The notes under the pieces were generated by a model, which did not search any database, was not told the origin of the DNA, and worked only from the letters and a program-made list of their open reading frames with translations. 64,000 nt of DNA from an uncultured Methanomicrobiales archaeon (GTDB lineage Archaea > Halobacteriota > Methanomicrobia > Methanomicrobiales > JACTUA01), in NCBI GenBank assembly GCA_964551875.1, contig CAZKEV010000002.1, positions 16,047 to 80,046 on the forward strand. The letters are read 5' to 3'. Positions 2,805 through 61,429 of this stretch are shown piece by piece. The number at the start of each line of letters is the position of its first letter. Position 1 is the stretch's first letter. Position numbers and translations under genes: made by a program.

Positions 2805-4586
2805 ATGGTTGCGAATCCCATTACGCTGACGCGGGTTTCGCAGCGAATCCCGCCGATCGACTACACCAGTCGCGATTTCGAGGCAATTTCTCAAGATCTC
2901 GTGCGGGCGATTCCATTTTTTGCTCCGGAATGGACAGATCACAATTTGTCGGACTTCGGAATCGTTCTTCAGCGGCTCCTGGCGATGATGGGCGACTGCC
3001 TCCACTTCTACATCGACCGGGGGGCCAACGAGGCGTTCCTTCCTACGGCCATCACCCGGCGTTCGGTCATCTACCTCCTCCGGCTCATCAACTTCACCCT
3101 GAACAGCGCGGCCCCGGCATCCGTGGACGTCGTCTTCTCTCTTCAGAATCCCTTGGGCGGAGACCTCGTGATCCCCAAGGGAACTCTTCTCCAGACCACG
3201 GCGGACGCCACGGACAAGCCCGTCTACTTCGAGACCACGGCGGACGCGGTGATCCCAGGGGGGCAACTGGACGTGACGGTCGCGGCGGTGGAGGGACAGA
3301 CCAAGAGCGAGAATGTCGGGATCAGCAGGGGCATTCCGAGACAGCGGTTCACTCTCTCTGGGACTCCGATCATCGACGGAACCCTCGAAATCTGGATCGA
3401 CGAGGGCGTTGGAGATCAGCTCTGGCAGGAGATTGACTCCTTCGCCTACGCCGGATCGGACGACAAGGTGTTCGTTACCAATCGAGACGAGAACAATCTC
3501 GTCACCGTATTCTTCGGTGACAACGCCCAGGGCAAGATTCCTGACCAGGGGGCGATCATCCGGTCGGATTACCGGGTTGGGGGCGGGGCGAATGGGAATG
3601 TGCCGGAGAACACGATTACGGCGATCAACGCGGTCTTCACTTTCAACGGAGCCCCCGTGGGCGTGGCGGTGACGAACCCCAACGCGGCGAGCGGTGGCGA
3701 AGAAGCCATGACCATCGACGAGGCCAAGGTAGCGGGACCGAGGAGCCTCCTGGCCCTGAATCGGGCGGTCACGGCCCAGGACTTCGTCGCCTTGACCGAA
3801 GCCTACCCCGGTGTGGCGAAGGCGTTTGTGGTCGTGGGAGCGACCCCGATGGACCCGTCGAGCGGGTGCTGTTGCCTCGTGCGTCTCACCTTCGCCCCCA
3901 CGGGAGGGGGCTTGCCGTCGAGCCAGCTAAAGGCCGATATTCTGGCCTACTTCGAGACCAGGAAGATGATCGGGACTTGCCTGGAGATTGTGGATCCCGA
4001 GTACCAGCCGGTGGACGGTGCGGGGACGATCTACATGGCGAGCAACTTCTCCACGGAGCAGGGTGCCCTGGATGTTGACCAGTCGATCACCAACTTCTTC
4101 GCGCTTGGGAGTGAGTTCGTAGGATTCGGCCAGTCGCTCTACCTGTCGGATTTCTACCGCCTCCTGGATTCGATCCCGGGGGTCGACCACGCCGACCTCA
4201 CGGAGCTGACCCGGAGGCCCGTTCCCGGGTGCGGGCCGTGGAGCGGGGACTGCGAGCTCAAGAACTTCGTGGTGGGTGCGACGGCGAAGAACGAGGAATG
4301 GACGGTCACCATGACGTCCATCACCACGTTCTCGGTGATCGGGACGGTGAGCGGGATCCAGAACCCCGGAACCGTGGGGGTGAACTACACCACGAACGGC
4401 GGGGAAGTCTCGTTCAAGATCGAATGCGGAGGAGGCCCCGCGCCCGTGGTGGGGGACAGGTGCAAGTTCACGACCAGTCCAAAGGTCGCCAACGTACCCA
4501 TGAAGCCGGTCGAGATCATGACGAGGGGCAACTTCGTGTTCAACTTCATCGGCAGCGCGAGGCCGCAGAGGGTGTGCCCAGTATGA
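2805..4586 (+). CDS. Baseplate J-like protein (P2 gpJ / T4 gp6 family)
   Basis: ATG 2805 after GGAGGGGG. IDYTSRDFEAISQDLVRAIPFFAPEWTDHNLSDFGIVLQRLLAMMGDCLHFYIDRGANEAFLPTA is a typical Baseplate_J N-terminus. Its position after gp25-like is canonical. Confidence 0.85.
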   Translation: MVANPITLTRVSQRIPPIDYTSRDFEAISQDLVRAIPFFAPEWTDHNLSDFGIVLQRLLAMMGDCLHFYIDRGANEAFLPTAITRRSVIYLLRLINFTLNSAAPASVDVVFSLQNPLGGDLVIPKGTLLQTTADATDKPVYFETTADAVIPGGQLDVTVAAVEGQTKSENVGISRGIPRQRFTLSGTPIIDGTLEIWIDEGVGDQLWQEIDSFAYAGSDDKVFVTNRDENNLVTVFFGDNAQGKIPDQGAIIRSDYRVGGGANGNVPENTITAINAVFTFNGAPVGVAVTNPNAASGGEEAMTIDEAKVAGPRSLLALNRAVTAQDFVALTEAYPGVAKAFVVVGATPMDPSSGCCCLVRLTFAPTGGGLPSSQLKADILAYFETRKMIGTCLEIVDPEYQPVDGAGTIYMASNFSTEQGALDVDQSITNFFALGSEFVGFGQSLYLSDFYRLLDSIPGVDHADLTELTRRPVPGCGPWSGDCELKNFVVGATAKNEEWTVTMTSITTFSVIGTVSGIQNPGTVGVNYTTNGGEVSFKIECGGGPAPVVGDRCKFTTSPKVANVPMKPVEIMTRGNFVFNFIGSARPQRVCPV

Positions 4587-11145: not shown

Positions 11146-11194
11146 GACCGGCGGGCGTTCTCCATTCGGGGGGACGCCCCCGGTCTTTTCATTT
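11146..11194 (+). terminator. Rho-independent terminator
   Basis: GACCGGCGGGCGT ... ACGCCCCCGGTC gives a 12-bp stem with one bulge, followed by TTTTCATTT. Confidence 0.6.
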
Positions 11195-39481: not shown

Positions 39482-39511
39482 AGTTGAGTGACCTTGACGA
39501 AAGGGCCAAGC

Positions 39512-40783
39512 ATGAAAATCGGAAGCATCGAGGACCTCAATCCAGCGCCCTACAACCCGAGGCGGATCGACCAGGAATCCTTGTCGGGCTTGCAGGTCAG
39601 CATCCGGGAACTCGGCGACGTCAGCTGCATCTGTTTCAACGAGAGGACGAAGCAGATGTTTGCGGGACACCAGCGGGTGAAGGCCCTCAAGGCGGAGTTC
39701 GGATCCGACCTCAAGATTGTCGGGGACGAGGCGACGGGCTTTTCCATCCTCACCCCGAAGGGGGACCGCTTCCCCATCCGGGTCGTGGACTGGCCGGAGG
39801 ACAAGGAGCGGCTGGCGAACCTCACGGCCAACAACCACTTCATCCAGGGGGTGTGGACCGAAACCGCCGAGGACGTTCTTGGGCAGGCCGACAACGACTT
39901 CCCGGAATTGTGTGAGCAGCTCCGTCTCAACGACCTGGACCTTGAACTTCTCATTGCGAAGGGGAAGAAGGATCACGTCGGCAAGGGCAAGGACGCGGAG
40001 CCCGACCTCGACGCCGGGGAGGAGCTGAGGAAGAAGTGGGGGGTGGAGCTGGGGCAGATTTGGGAGATGGGAGATCACCGGATCCTCTGCGGAGACTGCC
40101 TCGACAAGGCCCTGGTGGATAATTTTATGGCGGGGGAGATGGCTCACATGAGCTTCACCGATCCCCCCTACGGGGTGGATTACGGAGGACACAACCACCC
40201 ATTGTGGTCTCACAAACACGCCCCAATCCAGAACGACGCCCTGCCCGCCGACCAGATGGCCGCTTTCTGGGAAGCCGCCTTCAACATGGTGGCGGACTAC
40301 GTCTCGAACGACCTCTACGTGACGGCCCCCGGAGGCCCCCTGAACAACACCATGGCCGCCGCCATCTCCAGGACCCCGTTCGAGCATCACCAGTGGCTCA
40401 TTTGGGTGAAGGACCGGCTCGTCCTCGGGCGGTCGAATTACCACTACCGGCACGAGCACATTTGGTACGGCTGGAAGAAGGGGAAGACATCTTCCTGGCA
40501 GGGATCCACGACCGAGGACAGCGTCTGGGAAATCAAGCGCCCCAGTCGATCGGATGACCACCCGACCATGAAACCGGTGGAGCTCGTTCAGAAGGCCCTG
40601 GCCAACAGCAGCATGAAGGGCGACACCGTGTTCGAGCCCTTCAGCGGCTCGGGGACAACCATCGTGGCCTGCGAGAACATGGAGAGGAAGTGCTTGGCCA
40701 TCGAAGTCGTTCCGGCCTACGTCGCCGTCGCGCTTCAGCGGTGGTCGGACGCTTTCCAGAAAACTCCGAAAAAGTTGTCGTAG
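39512..40783 (+). CDS. ParB-like nuclease domain fused to an N6-adenine/N4-cytosine DNA methyltransferase (beta class)
   Basis: N-terminus IEDLNPAPYNPRRI (ParB box). HRILCGDCLD, FTDPPYGVDY (DPPY) and VFEPFSGSGTTIVAC (FxGxG). Start is ATG 39512 or GTG 39488. Confidence 0.85.
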   Translation: MKIGSIEDLNPAPYNPRRIDQESLSGLQVSIRELGDVSCICFNERTKQMFAGHQRVKALKAEFGSDLKIVGDEATGFSILTPKGDRFPIRVVDWPEDKERLANLTANNHFIQGVWTETAEDVLGQADNDFPELCEQLRLNDLDLELLIAKGKKDHVGKGKDAEPDLDAGEELRKKWGVELGQIWEMGDHRILCGDCLDKALVDNFMAGEMAHMSFTDPPYGVDYGGHNHPLWSHKHAPIQNDALPADQMAAFWEAAFNMVADYVSNDLYVTAPGGPLNNTMAAAISRTPFEHHQWLIWVKDRLVLGRSNYHYRHEHIWYGWKKGKTSSWQGSTTEDSVWEIKRPSRSDDHPTMKPVELVQKALANSSMKGDTVFEPFSGSGTTIVACENMERKCLAIEVVPAYVAVALQRWSDAFQKTPKKLS

Positions 40784-40788
40784 GTCCC

Positions 40789-40816
40789 TTGACTCGGTGA
40801 CCCTCCCGCCTATGAT
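40789..40816 (+). promoter_or_regulatory. Promoter-like element P11 (drives candidate RNA1)
   Basis: CCCTTGACT-N16-TATGAT followed by AGGG. Same architecture as P1-P10. Confidence 0.5.
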
Positions 40817-40822
40817 AGGGAG

Positions 40823-40988
40823 TGGCAAGACCGGGGGAAGAAATGCAGCGAGGCAACGAATCTCGGATCTCAGCACCCCCTTCGCTGGGGGTTGCTGGCG
40901 GGGGGTTACGCGGGTTCTCCTGCGCTGCCCCGGTAGCCCCCTATAACCATCAGGCCGTCTTCCACCAGGAGGCGGCCTTTCTTTTTTT
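40823..40988 (+). ncRNA. Candidate structured non-coding RNA 1 (~165 nt), family unknown
   Basis: No credible ORF. Internal helices: CAGCACCCCC/GGGGGUUGCUG and CGCGGG-UUCU-CCUGCG. Ends at an 11-bp hairpin followed by UUCUUUUUUU. The 5' end is inferred from the -10 position. Confidence 0.4.
40952..40988 (+). terminator. Rho-independent terminator T1
   Basis: AGGCCGTCTTC ... GGAGGCGGCCT stem followed by TTCTTTTTTT. Confidence 0.8.
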
Positions 40989-41000
40989 GCTGGAAACCCC

Positions 41001-41030
41001 TTGACAGCTTTCAGACGGGGGAGCAAGAAT
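41001..41030 (+). promoter_or_regulatory. Promoter-like element P12 (drives candidate RNA2 / replication leader)
   Basis: CCCCTTGACA-N18-AAGAAT followed by AGGGG. Weaker -10 than P1-P10. Confidence 0.4.
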
Positions 41031-41036
41031 AGGGGT

Positions 41037-41287
41037 GTCGGGGGAGCGGTAGTGAACAAGGACAAACCCTGACAAGCGAAACAAGATGGCCGCTGGCAAC
41101 GGCCTGAGAACAGGAGAACGGAGCGGGAGTGGTAGAGACGAAGCACAACACCGGAAAAACCGGTGTCGGTTGCCAACCGACTCCGGGGGGGCGAAGTGGG
41201 GAATCGGACCACTCCTACTCGCCCTACGTAGCCCCCGAAAAAACAACCAGGCCGCGCCTCGAAAGAGGTTGCGGCCTGTTTTATTTC
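41037..41287 (+). ncRNA. Candidate structured non-coding RNA 2 / cis-regulatory leader (~250 nt), family unknown
   Basis: Nested helices: GGCCG-CUGGCAA-CGGCC, CACCGG-AAAAA-CCGGUG, UCGGUU-GCC-AACCGA, and GGGCGA..UCGCCC enclosing AGUGG..CCACU. The 5' UCGGGGG can pair with CCCCCGA at 41232. Ends at a GAAA-tetraloop terminator. Confidence 0.4.
41248..41287 (+). terminator. Rho-independent terminator T2
   Basis: CAGGCCGCGCCTC-GAAA-GAGGTTGCGGCCTG followed by TTTTATTT. Confidence 0.8.
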
Positions 41288-41372
41288 CAGGCAAGACGCC
41301 GAGTGACCGGCGAGACGCGGTGAAGAAGCCCCAGAGGTGAACGGGGCATGCTCGGGTGGAAAGGATCGAACG

Positions 41373-42791
41373 ATGGACGGCGGAGTTATCATCAAGCGCA
41401 AGAGGGCGCAGGGGCCATTCAGCATCAACTACGGTCCCTACGTCGTTGATGGGAGAATTTCGGACGGGGCGGCACGGACCCTCGATCTCCTGGACATCCT
41501 TTGCGGGGCGGACGAGGAGGGAAACCATAGCTGCGGCTTGATCGCCCGGCTGAGGCATACCACCACCAGAACCATCGAGAGGCACCTTGACGAGCTGAAA
41601 ACGGTGGGCCTCATTGCCGTCGAGTACCGCCAAGGGCAAACCAACGTGGTCACCATCCTCGACCCGGTTGAGGTGTACGGAGACGAGGCGATCCGGAACT
41701 TCTACCGGCTGTTCGTGCGGCGGGAGACCCCCGAAAAAAACTTCGGGGGTGGGACCCCCGACAAAAATGTCGGGGGTACCTACGACAAAAATGTCGGGGG
41801 GACCCCCGACAAAAATGTCGGACAGAACAGAGGGGGGGGAAACAGAGTAAAGAAAACAGAGCCCTACGGGGCGTTGTCGCCCGAGGCGACACCGCTTCTC
41901 GTGCTCAAGACAGCTGAAAAGAAGAGGGAGAAAGAAGCAGAGGATAAAGCCAAAGCCAAAGGCATCGCCTTCGAGAAAGAAATTCATTCAAACGCTGCAT
42001 CTTCTGAAATCGCTTCAGAAGCCGCTGGTTGCCCCCAGGACGCGTCGCCTCCCAAGGGCAACCCGGCCCAGCGGGGAGGGGGGGCACCCCCGGCAACGGC
42101 GGCAAGCCGTCCCGGTTCCCGCCCCGTTTCCCACGATGACGCAGATCCCATCTTCGCCCCCTTCCACCCGGAGGAAGAAATGGTTCCGCAAACGCTTTGC
42201 GCTGCTCCCTTCAAGAGCGAGAGGTCGGGGGGGCAGATCCTGATTCCAGGAAGTGACGACGAGGACGATGGTCGGATTTCCAAGAAGCCGAAGAAGAGGG
42301 GGATGTACGACCCGGAGAAGGCCCCGGCGGAGTGGAACACGAACGACGCCATCGGGTACTTCCGCAAGATGTACCAGAAGGCGTGGCCGGGGGAGGGAGC
42401 GCCGGACGTCGGGGTGAAGGACGCCGCTGCCGTGAAGGGGCGGCTCGCCTGGCTCAAGGCGGAGGGCACCGGGGCGGGCATGATGAAGCGGGCCATTGAC
42501 CACCTGTTCGCGGGGTGGAGCGATGGTTTGCCTTCTCGGATGAAGTGGACGGGGTCGCGTCCGGGGCTGGTCCTCATCGAGAGCACTCGGTGGTTCGAGT
42601 CCCTGGTGCGGGAGGTGCAGGGAGGGGTGGGGGCGAGCGGGAGGGTGGACGAGTGGTCTGGGAACACCCCGGAGGGGAAGGTGCGGGAGGAGAAGTACGC
42701 GAAGAAGGAAGAGATTGTAGCGAGGTTGATCCATGAGGGTGCCAATCTGGAAACCGCAGAGCGTGAAGCGCGCCGACTGGCTGGATGCTAA
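41373..42791 (+). CDS. Putative replication initiator / replisome organiser (N-terminal winged-HTH; iterons inside the gene)
   Basis: ATG 41373 after GGAAAGGA. LIARLRHTTTRTIERHLDELKTVGLIAVEY is HTH-like. Carries an internal 24-bp iteron array. Followed by a DnaC-like loader gene. Confidence 0.6.
   Translation: MDGGVIIKRKRAQGPFSINYGPYVVDGRISDGAARTLDLLDILCGADEEGNHSCGLIARLRHTTTRTIERHLDELKTVGLIAVEYRQGQTNVVTILDPVEVYGDEAIRNFYRLFVRRETPEKNFGGGTPDKNVGGTYDKNVGGTPDKNVGQNRGGGNRVKKTEPYGALSPEATPLLVLKTAEKKREKEAEDKAKAKGIAFEKEIHSNAASSEIASEAAGCPQDASPPKGNPAQRGGGAPPATAASRPGSRPVSHDDADPIFAPFHPEEEMVPQTLCAAPFKSERSGGQILIPGSDDEDDGRISKKPKKRGMYDPEKAPAEWNTNDAIGYFRKMYQKAWPGEGAPDVGVKDAAAVKGRLAWLKAEGTGAGMMKRAIDHLFAGWSDGLPSRMKWTGSRPGLVLIESTRWFESLVREVQGGVGASGRVDEWSGNTPEGKVREEKYAKKEEIVARLIHEGANLETAEREARRLAGC
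41727..41823 (+). repeat. Four 24-bp palindromic iterons (putative origin of replication)
   Basis: aCCCCCGAaaaaaaCTTCGGGGG, gaCCCCCGACAAAAATGTCGGGGG, taCCTACGACAAAAATGTCGGGGG, gaCCCCCGACAAAAATGTCGGAC. They translate as (G)GTPDKNV repeats. Confidence 0.65.
42187..42201. repeat. Palindrome CGCAAA-CGC-TTTGCG (copy 6)
   Basis: Direct reading; inside the replication initiator gene. Confidence 0.9.
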
Positions 42792-50122: not shown

Positions 50123-50150
50123 TTGACAAAATCTATAAACGATTTATAGC
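50123..50150 (+). promoter_or_regulatory. Consensus promoter P7
   Basis: CCCTTGACAAAATCTATAAACGATTTATAGC with a 16-nt spacer. Confidence 0.7.
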
Positions 50151-51076: not shown

Positions 51077-51153
51077 GGGCGTGTAGCTCAGCTGGTTAGA
51101 GCGCTTGCCTGATAAGCAAGAGGTCGGCGGTTCGAGTCCGCCTTCGCCCACCA
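51077..51153 (+). tRNA. tRNA-Ile (anticodon GAU), CCA encoded
   Basis: Hand-folded cloverleaf: GGGCGTG/TA/GCTC-AGCTGGTTA-GAGC/G/CTTGC-CTGATAA-GCAAG/AGGTC/GGCGG-TTCGAGT-CCGCC/TTCGCCC/A/CCA. Confidence 0.85.
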
Positions 51154-51285
51154 GGGAGAGGAAGTGGGTGCCCCTGGTGCCTCCACCCCGCATCCCGGCG
51201 ATACGCGATCGACCGTGGGTGAGCAGAAAAATCAGGCGGCGAGGCTGGTAACAGCTCCGTCGAGGGCTTGGGTGGCCTCTCTTTG

Positions 51286-51361
51286 GCGGGAGTAGCTCAG
51301 TTGGTAGAGCGCGATCTTTCCAAGCTCGATGTCGTGGGTTCGACTCCCATCTCCCGTTCCA
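51286..51361 (+). tRNA. tRNA-Gly (anticodon UCC), CCA encoded
   Basis: GCGGGAG/TA/GCTC-AGTTGGTA-GAGC/G/CGATC-TTTCCAA-GCTCG/ATGTC/GTGGG-TTCGACT-CCCAT/CTCCCGT/T/CCA. One mismatch in the anticodon stem. Confidence 0.8.
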
Positions 51362-51425
51362 CTGGGAGGAGATGCTGCCGGGCAACGTGATGGTTCGCCA
51401 TCCCGGCCCGGAGAGCGCCTCCCGC

Positions 51426-51500
51426 GCCACCCTGGCTCAACGGTAGAGCGACGCTTTCGTAAAGCGTAGGTTGTCGGTTCGATTCCGGCGGGTGGCTCCA
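51426..51500 (+). tRNA. tRNA-Thr (anticodon CGU), CCA encoded
   Basis: GCCACCC/TG/GCTC-AACGGTA-GAGC/G/ACGCT-TTCGTAA-AGCGT/AGGTT/GTCGG-TTCGATT-CCGGC/GGGTGGC/T/CCA. Confidence 0.85.
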
Positions 51501-51572
51501 GCCGCCTTAGCTCAAAGGCAGAGCGACGGTTTTGTAAACCGTAGGTTGTCGGTTCAAGTCCGACAGGTGGCT
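51501..51572 (+). tRNA. tRNA-Thr (anticodon UGU), no encoded CCA
   Basis: GCCGCCT/TA/GCTC-AAAGGCA-GAGC/G/ACGGT-TTTGTAA-ACCGT/AGGTT/GTCGG-TTCAAGT-CCGAC/AGGTGGC/T. Starts immediately after the previous tRNA's CCA. Confidence 0.85.
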
Positions 51573-51581
51573 TCAAAGTGT

Positions 51582-51657
51582 GGCGGGGTAGTTCAGCTGG
51601 TAGAATGCCGGGCTCATAACCCGGAGATCGCGAGTTCGAGTCTCGCCCCCGCTCCCA
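51582..51657 (+). tRNA. tRNA-Met (anticodon CAU), initiator-like anticodon stem, CCA encoded
   Basis: GGCGGGG/TA/GTTC-AGCTGGTA-GAAT/G/CCGGG-CTCATAA-CCCGG/AGATC/GCGAG-TTCGAGT-CTCGC/CCCCGCT/C/CCA. Three consecutive G:C pairs next to the anticodon loop and a weak 1:72 pair (G:U) resemble initiator tRNA. An elongator or lysidine-modified Ile2 tRNA cannot be excluded. Confidence 0.8.
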
Positions 51658-60723: not shown

Positions 60724-61429
60724 CCCGTGGAAGAAGTTCGAGCGGCTGGTCGCCGAGCGGTTCTCGAAGTGGATGGCGCAGGGGGCGAAGGGGGTGGACG
60801 CCGAGCGGATCCTCTCCCGTCAAGCCCTCATGGGCCGGATGATCGAGCGGACCTATGGAGACCTCACCGTCCACCCGAAGTGCTCCTCCCGCTTCCTGCC
60901 GATGGCGAAGTGGTTCATGGAGAAGTTCCAGGTGGACGCGAAGAACAGAAAGGCGTTCCGTCTTCCCGGTCTTCTCACGGGGGCGGAGCATCCCTTCTGG
61001 GGCTGGTGGGAGAAGCTGACGGAGGAGACGCCGAGGTGGAGCCGGATCATGACGCGGGACGGGTCGAGCGGCAAGGTCAGCACCGAGGAAAAGGGCAAGG
61101 TTCGCCTCATGGTCATCATGAACGCCCCCTCGAAGGAGCATCTTCTGGTGCTCGGATACGGGGACACGGAGTTTCTCGATAGCGCCATGGGCCTGATGGA
61201 CAGGGAGATTCCCACGATCAGGATTCGCCGCGTGAAAACGGCGGATGCGGTCAAGATCGTTGTCCTGGAGGATTTTTTGAATTGGGCTGACCCGGTTTCG
61301 ATGGGGTGCCCGAAGATCGAGGAGGGATCCAATGCCGCCGAAAAAGAAATCGCGCCTTCAAACCATCCTGTCCAAACTGGCGGAGAAGGGAATTCCGCTG
61401 GAGGAGATGGCGAAAGAGGTCGGCCTTGA
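60713..61429 (+). CDS. Hypothetical protein (possible nuclease fold); last ~30 codons overlap the next gene
   Basis: ATG 60713. The YGDLTVHP...FQVDAKNRK pattern is D...(D/E)xK-like (weak). The C-terminal 98 nt overlap the ORF at 61332. Confidence 0.45.
   Translation: MPDSPWKKFERLVAERFSKWMAQGAKGVDAERILSRQALMGRMIERTYGDLTVHPKCSSRFLPMAKWFMEKFQVDAKNRKAFRLPGLLTGAEHPFWGWWEKLTEETPRWSRIMTRDGSSGKVSTEEKGKVRLMVIMNAPSKEHLLVLGYGDTEFLDSAMGLMDREIPTIRIRRVKTADAVKIVVLEDFLNWADPVSMGCPKIEEGSNAAEKEIAPSNHPVQTGGEGNSAGGDGERGRP

Follow-up and report, generated by a model that had tools for sequence, protein, structure and literature searches.

A predicted pseudoknotted RNA family at the head of a phage replication operon

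What is carried by the DNA between positions 40784 and 41372 of the 64,000-nt stretch of contig CAZKEV010000002.1 analyzed here (the window, by which we always mean this whole stretch)? These positions separate a ParB-N/N6-N4 methyltransferase gene (39488-40783; Pfam PF01555) from a replication initiator gene, which is followed by a DnaC/IstB-like loader gene and then by NrdJ (class II ribonucleotide reductase), with small open reading frames (ORFs) also in the operon. Comparison of ORFs with those of homologues marks the interval as a noncoding island. A preliminary description of the island had proposed two self-contained units in front of the replication operon, each with a promoter, a structured RNA, and a terminator, and our scans recovered both promoters (P1 and P2) and both terminators (T1 and T2). 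We call the two RNAs RNA1 and RNA2. Comparison of homologous loci shows RNA2 to represent a new, conserved, strand-specific RNA family with a predicted pseudoknot, absent from Rfam 15. The units are composed as follows.

40789-40816, + strand: P1, a sigma-70-type promoter (TTGACT-16-TATGAT) for RNA1, from the promoter scan; begins 6 nt past the methyltransferase stop codon
40823-40988, + strand: RNA1, ~165 nt; 5' end inferred from the -10 box, 3' end at the T1 U-tract
40952-40988, + strand: T1, an intrinsic terminator with an 11-bp stem (40952-40978) and then UUUCUUUUUUU; -18.2 kcal/mol, found in two scans
41001-41030, + strand: P2, a sigma-70-type promoter (TTGACA-18-AAGAAT) that serves RNA2 and, probably, the replication operon; from the promoter scan
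~41037-41286, + strand: RNA2, ~250 nt with a conserved core of ~200 nt, ending at T2
41248-41286, + strand: T2, an intrinsic terminator with a 13-bp bulged stem and GAAA loop (41248-41278) and then UUUUAUUU; -24.6 kcal/mol, from the hairpin-plus-U-tract scan
41373-42791, + strand: replication initiator gene, with homologues P0002 to P0010

A conserved RNA in uncultivated phages

We collected further loci through the initiator homologues and then with two-anchor DNA patterns in IMG/VR and JGI metagenomes. RNA2 was present in 13 distinct copies, that of the window and those of loci L001, L034, L035, L046, L038, L039, L042, L044, L045, L051, L055, and L057. All 13 lie on phage-like metagenome contigs, upstream of a homologous initiator gene and on its strand (in L046 and L057, the downstream sequence ends near the start of that gene). 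The initiator is followed by the loader in all five loci with called genes, with NrdJ within ~3 to 4 kb, and the genes upstream of RNA2 differ among loci. The RNA2 copies share ~75 to 87% nucleotide identity, versus 37 to 63% identity for the flanking proteins; in L001, an IMG/VR contig, the whole island is 82% identical in nucleotides and the methyltransferase is 63% identical in protein. Searches of GenBank phages (blastn and tblastn) and PLSDB plasmids (blastn) found no relatives, and judged by these searches the clade is one without a cultured or plasmid relative.

Several groups of candidates were set aside. The 26 two-anchor matches in GTDB were chance matches in GC-rich genomes, as none was found by BLAST or by the covariance model; nearly all matches of single-anchor IMG/VR scans (16-mer and 17-mer) and the metagenome matches L050 and L053 were likewise due to chance, and looser RNA1 and RNA2 patterns in IMG/VR added no members. 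Two distant initiator homologues, L041 and L084, have no RNA2. In L041, an HNH-type ORF lies on the opposite strand (3075-3650) at the place where RNA2 would be expected. Some relatives carry intein/Hint domains in their DNA methylase and ribonucleotide reductase (L038, 298-2478 and 7379-9302; L044, 4052-6489; L035, 1-325).

The preliminary description could place neither RNA in a known family, and database searches agreed. A scan of the whole window against Rfam 15 at gathering scores returned only five tRNAs at 51 kb. For region 40700-41450 at E values up to 10, the best covariance-model match was SorY (RF02651) on RNA1, at 25.9 bits versus a gathering score of 111; isrK, suhB, and the other permissive matches in this region were far under their thresholds. 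SorY and RNA1 have a common outline, a hairpin, a short hairpin, and a terminator in ~85 nt, but the score is so far below the threshold that RNA1 is not a member. Cobalamin riboswitch models, plausible given NrdJ, had no match in the same region even at this permissive cutoff, ARAGORN found no tRNA or tmRNA in the island, and a full-text literature search returned nothing resembling the RNA family.

We consider it extremely improbable that the island encodes a protein, whether through the 84-amino-acid ORF at 41086-41340 or through a small ORF starting at the conserved ATGCAGCG in RNA1. The former is indeed open in the window, and a purine-rich Shine-Dalgarno-like tract precedes the conserved ATG in four of six RNA1 homologues. 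However, the 84-amino-acid ORF has two to three in-frame stops in L001, L035, and L038, no frame is open across all 13 RNA2 homologues, and L042 has stops in all six frames. Nor do the length differences among RNA2 cores (196 to 213 nt) come in multiples of 3. For RNA1, the conserved block GCGGGTT..CCTGCGCTGCCCCG falls in different frames in L034 and L043, and the window ORF would cross T1 with no stop codon ahead of the terminator. The start-codon-like motif of RNA1 (AUGCAGCGCAG) is accounted for by its complementarity to the invariant loop of the 3' hairpin (CCUGCGCU). We rejected coding potential on the basis of the broken frames in homologues, in agreement with the earlier statement that the island has no credible ORF.

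Predicted folds of RNA2 and its upstream paralogue

RNA2 has a far lower folding energy than shuffled sequence (z = -4.6). Its predicted elements, in order, are these.

41037-41073, + strand: H0, the 5'-terminal hairpin GUCGGGG...CCCUGAC with a variable loop, from the minimum-free-energy fold; window-type loci only
41088-41104, + strand: H1, the hairpin GGCCG-CUGGCAA-CGGCC, invariant in all 13 copies
41121-41133, + strand: strand a of a long-range helix, GAGCGGGAGUGGU; pairs with 41208-41220 and lies 14 to 22 nt after H1
41149-41165, + strand: optional hairpin CACCGG-AAAAA-CCGGUG, found in 8 of 13 copies, with pairing kept in the variants CAUUGG and UACCGG
41160-41186, + strand: H3 (UCGG-UUGCCAA-CCGA) with a flanking CCGG/CCGG helix, inside the invariant block AAACCGGUGUCGG, from RNAalifold and pair counts
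41187-41201, + strand: 5' strand of the G-run hairpin (GGGGGC, GAA, GUGGGG); pairs with 41222-41236, independently predicted by RNAalifold
41208-41220, + strand: strand a', ACCACUCCUACUC, in the loop of the G-run hairpin between GYRGGG and CCCYRC; pairs with strand a
41222-41236, + strand: 3' strand of the G-run hairpin (CCCUAC, GUA, GCCCCC), with CGUAGCCCCCGAAA invariant

The sequence of the a/a' helix is entirely different in each lineage, and its complementarity is always kept.

Window: a, GGGAGUGGU; a', ACCACUCCU
L001: a, GGAUAGUGGGAG; a', UUCCCACUAUCC
L035: a, AGCGUUGUGGCGAA; a', UUCGCCACAACGCU
L042: a, AAGCAGUGAC; a', GUCACUGCUU
L057: a, AGCGUGGUCAU; a', AUGACCACGCU

Cognate a/a' duplexes have a mean energy of -20.7 kcal/mol, versus -12.9 kcal/mol (standard deviation, 3.6) for noncognate ones. 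In a hand-made structural alignment (A4), 13 of the 14 aligned a/a' pairs changed on both sides. Over the whole structure, 98.2% of the cells in A4 were paired, compared with 87.3% in shuffles and 33 to 48% when partners were slid by 1 to 3 columns, and 74 cells had changed on both sides, compared with 23 in shuffles. Since A4 was fitted to the a/a' helix, the duplex energies serve as independent support for it.

RNAalifold, run on an unfitted MAFFT alignment, returned H1, the CCGG/CCGG helix, H3, GGGGGC/GCCCCC, GYRGGG/CCCYRC, and the terminator. The two variable pairs of GYRGGG/CCCYRC (U-G, U-A, or C-G and G-U, G-C, or A-U) are never broken, and the G-run/C-run hairpin is interrupted by a conserved GAA/GUA internal loop. 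CCCYRC could alternatively pair with the G-rich J1 rather than with GYRGGG, less consistently across loci. Because strand a' lies in the loop of this hairpin, RNA2 is predicted to form an H-type pseudoknot. The invariant blocks are GGCCGCUGGCAACGGCC (H1), AAACCGGUGUCGG, the H3 core, CCGGGGGGGC, CGUAGCCCCCGAAA, and CGGCCUG (the 3' strand of T2). The H0 stem is conserved with a varying loop in L001, L034, and L035, with no covariation.

The helices first read by eye fared unevenly. H1 and UCGGUU/AACCGA hold, the latter through a compensatory switch of its fifth pair from U-A to A-U among copies. CACCGG/CCGGUG holds in part: it is missing in 5 of the 13 copies, and it competes with the CCGG/CCGG helix. 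The 3' domain had to be redrawn, with the G-run/C-run hairpin and the a/a' pseudoknot replacing the earlier fold. There, the local helix GGGCGA...UCGCCC enclosing AGUGG...CCACU gave a z near 0 for most of the 13 sequences when its partner was shuffled, so that composition explains its appearance, and the CCACU segment pairs instead with 41121-41133. The proposed pairing of the 5' end (TGTCGGGGG) with CCCCCGAAAAAA also gives way, with TGTCGGGGG pairing with CCCTGAC (41067-41073) in H0 and CCCCCGAAAAAA forming part of the invariant C-run strand.

The H1 loop sequence UGGCAA could make a kissing contact with the H3 loop (UUGCCA and variants), to which it is complementary; the two loops hardly vary and show no covariation. 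H1 also has a geometry like that of an anticodon stem-loop, with a 5-bp stem and a 7-nt loop (CUGGCAA) in which position 2 is U and position 6 is A. The loop of the window H3 (41166-41180), UUGCCAA, is one that we take to be identical to the anticodon loop of Escherichia coli tRNA-Gly(GCC). Among copies, however, the H3 loop is 6 to 8 nt long, and for that reason the idea that H1 and H3 mimic anticodon stem-loops was set aside.

RNA1 has a folding energy only weakly better than that of shuffled sequence (z = -1.8). The RNA2 covariance model (R1) nevertheless matches the window RNA1 at 40812-40987 with 26.5 bits (E = 4.5e-7), and it matches RNA1 homologues as well.

L001: 28.1 bits, E = 8.5e-7
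L057: 20.3 bits, E = 2e-4
L035: 13.3 bits, E = 0.03

The match spans the G-run/C-run domain, the linker, and the terminator, and the model aligns the 3' domain of RNA1 with that of RNA2. RNA1 homologues are present in L001, L034, L035/L046, L043, and L057. Sequence comparison thus shows RNA1 to be a diverged, shorter paralogue of RNA2, apparently built on the same plan. Its elements are as follows.

40846-40853, + strand: upstream strand CAGCGAGG, which reads AGCGCAG(G) in relatives and is the complement of the invariant loop CCUGCGCUG (40919-40927)
40872-40898, + strand: central hairpin CAGCACCCCC-UUCGCU-GGGGGUUGCUG
40900-40941, + strand: 3' domain, with the outer helix GGGGGGUUAC/GUAGCCCCCU around GCGGG and the invariant CCUGCGCUGCCCCG

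The MAFFT/RNAalifold alignment of RNA1 was too poor to use, and we argued its helices directly from the sequences. The CAGCACCCCC/GGGGGUUGCUG helix, one of two noted by eye, is borne out by relatives in which it is replaced by different sequences that are still complementary (CGGCGUCACCUU...AAGGUACGCCG in L001 and GCGGUGUCGC...GCGGCUACCGC in L034). For the other, CGCGGG/CCUGCG, one alternative pairing exists. Covariation is seen in the outer G-run/C-run helix, which is CUGGGGG/CCCCCAG in L034 and UUGGGGGA/UCCCCCAA in L043. By analogy with RNA2, we propose that 40846-40853 is a pseudoknot strand; it and its partner are both conserved, without covariation.

Passage from P2 into the replication operon

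Promoter number alone was not above chance in a first scan (3 versus an expected 1.9 ± 1.4), and the same promoters recur at fixed positions across homologous loci. P1 is identical in L001, and its counterpart in the corresponding position of L034, L035, L043, and L057 is TTGACT-16-TATAAT or TATAGT. Of 12 loci, 10 have a promoter scoring at least 10 of 12 that lies 82 to 87 nt upstream of H1; reading by eye showed one scoring 9 of 12 at -52 in the L042-type loci, represented in the scan by L043 and L057. None of the 12 loci has a promoter scoring at least 10 of 12 within 3.5 kb downstream of RNA2, and the window has no consensus promoter between T2 and the initiator ATG, which agrees with the preliminary description. 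A stricter scan of the window found 12 near-consensus sigma-70 promoters, all on the + strand from 26940 to 59692, with none between P2 (41001) and 47411. Ten of the 12 share the extended form TTGACAAA-N-TATA(A/C)T, and P1 and P2 are without the AAA extension.

26940, 27380, 28572, 30915, 33918, 47411, 50123, 54411, 55903, and 59692, + strand: extended-form promoters

The spacer and -10 box of P1 lie inside an inverted repeat, CTCCC-GCCTATGATA-GGGAG (40795-40825), that is only partly conserved in L001 and could be an operator. In six loci without RNA1 (L038, L039, L044, L045, L051, and L055), ACGGTAGTCCTTGAAAAACATCGAGTTACGTCG and a T-run are conserved ~60 to 120 nt upstream of the RNA2 promoter, and a second promoter-like site, TTGACT-17-CATAAT, lies 41 nt before H1.

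The + strand of the 64 kb has 19 terminator-like sites, and T1 and T2 are among the five most stable (-18 kcal/mol or lower), the other three being at 11146, 22847, and 26891; a weaker site lies at 61421 (-12.9 kcal/mol). The T1 stem varies in sequence among relatives, which keep the hairpin and the U-tract. The T2 outer stem is conserved with G-U variants, the A-rich tract ahead of it is conserved too, and the T2 U-tract is imperfect or weaker in several relatives (UUCUAUCU and CUUCUUUA). T2 is symmetric in that the minus strand of 41237-41286 also gives a hairpin and then UUGUUUUUU, with a covariance model match of 17 bits; no minus-strand genes are evident near T2. The G-U pairs of the T2 stem would be C-A mismatches on the opposite strand, which makes the structure specific to the + strand. 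In most relatives, a further GC-rich hairpin and U-rich tract (T3) follow 25 to 40 nt after T2; T3 is missing in the window and in L001.

L038, ~3866-3915: T3
L045, ~4185-4225: T3
L051 and L055: T3
L034/L035, ~3530-3575: T3
L044, ~620-665: T3

Past T2, the 5' untranslated region (UTR) of the initiator contains two small hairpins with AGUGA-type loops. Such hairpins are found 25 to 75 nt upstream of the initiator ATG at every locus examined, including those in which RNA2 and the initiator have ORFs between them, and their stems covary (GACC/GGUC, GCCG/CGGC, and CCCUG/CAGGG). They are perhaps a separate RNA operator for translational control of the initiator.

41297-41312, + strand: hairpin CGCCG-AGUGAC-CGGCG
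41328-41347, + strand: hairpin GCCCC-AGAGGUGAAC-GGGGC
L034, ~3946-3990: hairpins of the same type
L042, ~725-790: hairpins of the same type
L044, ~1040-1100: hairpins of the same type

The first of these hairpins begins 11 nt after the T2 U-tract in the window, and this proximity implies that the initiator mRNA begins at or before T2. The next ORF after T2 is 13 nt away in L042 and ~40 nt away in L034.

We tentatively favor a reading, to which we give close to an even chance, in which RNA2 is a cis-acting leader that governs read-through of T2 into the replication operon. P2 would be the promoter of that operon (initiator, loader, small ORFs, and NrdJ), with RNA2 as its leader. Most transcripts would end at T2 and accumulate as a small RNA, and the replication genes would be made only by polymerases that pass T2 and, in relatives, a further terminator as well. 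By itself or together with a factor from the phage or the host, the folded leader would act on the polymerase during elongation, by processive antitermination in the style of HK022 put or lambda nut; action directed at the polymerase is favored because no conserved antiterminator hairpin was found. In a variant, a fixed leak through T2 would set a low level of the initiator. RNA1 and T1 would form a second module of the same kind that also closes the upstream early operon.

The earlier suggestion that the replication genes are reached by read-through gains support from the lack of downstream promoters in the 12 loci, from the hairpins 11 nt past T2, and from the L042 ORF at 13 nt. The roles listed at that time (attenuator or antitermination leader, trans-acting small RNAs, or origin transcripts) all stay on the list, and the evidence tilts toward a cis-acting leader. 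What tilts it is the fixed position and strand of RNA2 despite differing upstream genes, initiator N termini (two unrelated domain types on a shared C-terminal domain), and iterons. The imperfect T2 U-tracts and the second hairpin with a U-tract after T2 in most relatives tilt it in the same direction.

In the main rival reading, RNA1 and RNA2 would instead be stand-alone sibling small RNAs, or parts of ribonucleoproteins, that act in trans on targets or proteins of the phage or the host, with T1 and T2 as their own terminators insulating an operon that has its own non-sigma-70 promoter. We judge this possible but on the whole unlikely. At the sequence level, each RNA has a strong promoter and terminator, and tandem paralogy is a common arrangement for sibling small RNAs. 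The 5'-terminal hairpin H0, the A-rich single-stranded tract before the terminator, and the lack of an antiterminator structure fit as well, and the many invariant loop and junction nucleotides fit a conserved binding partner. Repeated GTGACCGG-type motifs between T2 and the ATG (in the L001 family D2) are a possible activator site. However, position and strand stay fixed to the replication module while upstream genes, initiator DNA-binding domains, and iterons vary; L042 has no room for a promoter between T2 and the next ORF; in the window, just 11 nt separate T2 from the 5'-UTR hairpins; and the weak U-tracts of several loci would be unusual in Hfq-type small RNAs.

A riboswitch, in which an ion or a metabolite (perhaps one tied to the supply of nucleotides) binds RNA2 (with RNA1 in tandem) and sets termination at T2 and thereby the supply of initiator, loader, and NrdJ, appears improbable. 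The complex conserved pseudoknot with invariant junctions, the terminator directly after it, and the operon ending in a ribonucleotide reductase would suit such a switch, and tandem homologous units are known for riboswitches. We looked for a conserved alternative partner for either half of the T2 stem, as a terminator/antiterminator switch would have, and found none, the best partner being locus specific and weaker than the terminator. Strand a' likewise shows no selected alternative local pairing. The two units have separate promoters, none of the known riboswitch models (cobalamin among them) gave a match, and the second terminator after T2 in many loci would be beyond the control of a single-terminator switch.

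The third alternative concerns the origin. The initiator gene holds four iterons.

41721-41821, inside the initiator gene: four iterons, GACCCCCGACAAAAATGTCGGGGG, at a spacing of 24 to 27 nt, encoding a repeated TPDKNVGG peptide

A purine-rich tract follows them in the window. The transcripts could be origin-activating or priming RNAs that form an R-loop through their G-rich segments near this in-gene origin, in the style of ColE1 RNA II or the T4 and T7 origins; we hold this to be quite improbable. Points in its favor are the strong promoters (in tandem in some loci) located ~0.7 kb ahead of the iterons, the very high G content of the RNA segments, the presence of family A polymerase and DnaB-type helicase genes in the phage, and the iteron-like half-sites at the 5' end of the window RNA2. 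This last resemblance, pointed out in the preliminary description, is real in the window but does not extend to the family. Iterons differ widely among loci (CCCCCGACAAAAATGTCGGGGG, CCCCGGACAAAAATGTCC, TGCAAGATATTGCA, GGGCCAAATCGGCCC, and others), and the RNA2 motif GUAGCCCCCGAAA is invariant across them; CCCCCGAAA, one of the proposed half-sites, is invariant even where the iterons are TGCAAGATATTGCA or GGGCCAAATCGGCCC, and the 5' extension with TGTCGGGGG is missing from 8 of the 13 copies. RNA sequence is thus invariant where iterons and initiator DNA-binding domains are unrelated, and we rejected the idea that CCCCCGAAA works as an iteron half-site. In addition, the RNAs stop at terminators ~450 bp short of the iterons, and what is conserved in them is not DNA motifs but RNA helices, which show G-U pairs and covariation.

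Several points weigh against the cis-acting leader. The window T2 resembles an efficient terminator. A promoter of its own, a structured body, an A-rich linker, a terminator, and tandem paralogues are the look of sibling small RNAs. A phage-specific non-sigma-70 promoter could lie downstream of T2 in most loci. The initiator homologues L041 and L084, which have no RNA2, indicate that the element is not obligatory for the replication module. The family comprises 13 sequences in all, several of them closely related; A4 was fitted by hand to the a/a' helix; and all but one of the other helices draw their support mostly from invariant sequence.

The surrounding DNA is that of a tailed phage, with a G+C content of 61.7%. 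Baseplate and tail genes extend to ~26 kb in the window and are followed by a DNA metabolism region that encodes the DnaB-type helicase, five tRNAs, the family A polymerase, a helicase, and a UvsX-like recombinase. The tRNA cluster (51077-51657; Ile-GAT, Gly-TCC, Thr-CGT, Thr-TGT, and Met-CAT) comes after the promoter at 50123 and before the family A polymerase gene.

Comparison with known leaders and small RNAs

The put element of phage HK022 is ~70 nt long, forms two long stem-loops, and is placed after an early promoter and before the terminators of the early and delayed-early genes (PMC9378689). It acts in cis without protein factors, making RNA polymerase terminator resistant through the beta' zinc-binding domain (PMC9378689). 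The wider phage arrangement is one in which early genes are preceded by terminators (PMC9378689). RNA2 resembles put as a nascent structured RNA just past an early sigma-70 promoter and ahead of terminators, and the delayed-early genes of lambdoid phages include replication genes; the order P2, RNA2, T2 (with T3 in relatives), and replication genes is a put-type location. Each genome has two related copies (putL and putR in HK022), and the high conservation is as expected of an RNA that fits the host polymerase. The two elements differ in that RNA1 and RNA2 stand in tandem on one strand, whereas the put copies lie on divergent operons. A further difference adds to the points against our reading of RNA2 as a leader: its ~200-nt core, which has five or more helices and a pseudoknot, is ~3 times larger than put and, by description, has an unlike fold.

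The O and P genes of lambda and HK022 lie behind the terminator tR1, which is overridden through nutR or putR. As in lambda nutR-tR1 and in pR'-6S RNA-tR', a promoter and a short terminated leader with its terminator precede an operon that would depend on read-through, and as with O and P, the first gene is an initiator with internal iterons and the next a helicase loader. Unlike lambda nut, the island has no boxB-type hairpin that is conserved in every copy (5 of the 13 copies do not have CACCGG-AAAAA-CCGGUG, the hairpin with an A-rich loop). For boxA (CGCUCUUA or UGCUCUUUAACAA), there was no match to GCTCTTTA with up to one mismatch inside 40784-41372. No N-like or Q-like protein was identified, and the lambda 6S leader, in contrast to RNA2, is not a conserved structured RNA.

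With pseudoknotted-aptamer riboswitches, RNA2 shares a conserved pseudoknot followed by an intrinsic terminator in a 5' leader and the tandem units; it differs in having no terminator/antiterminator alternative that we could find and no match to a known family. Tandem sibling small RNAs of bacteria include PrrF1/PrrF2, OmrA/OmrB, and AbcR1/2. Like these, RNA1 and RNA2 are head-to-tail paralogues, each with its own sigma-70 promoter and Rho-independent terminator, and read-through of the first would give a chimeric transcript. The bacterial pairs, however, are simple, with few hairpins and a single-stranded seed, whereas RNA2 is complex and pseudoknotted with invariant loops and junctions and is fixed at the head of one operon across diverged phages.

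To our knowledge, few RNA elements control transcription elongation alone (put, EAR, and a handful more), and all phage examples come from well-studied coliphages. Here, a large, covariation-backed RNA heads the replication operon in a clade of uncultivated phages of at least 100 kb, and it is compact, ~250 nt including the promoter-proximal and terminator signals. It is conceivable, though we think it rather unlikely, that RNA2 and RNA1 define a new class of leader that licenses phage DNA replication by reprogramming the host polymerase, alone or with a factor or ligand, to pass T2 and later terminators. In function, such a leader would resemble put or a riboswitch, with a fold ~3 times larger and unrelated. 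If RNA2 acts in cis, phage replication would be timed in a new manner, and RNA polymerase or a ligand would be addressed by a novel fold; a trans-acting pair of small RNAs would still give Rfam a clean new family whose structure is defined, whose genomic context is clear, and which has a paralogue. Compared with all of these systems, the kind of element is already known, a structured leader or small RNA with an intrinsic terminator, and what is new is this family.

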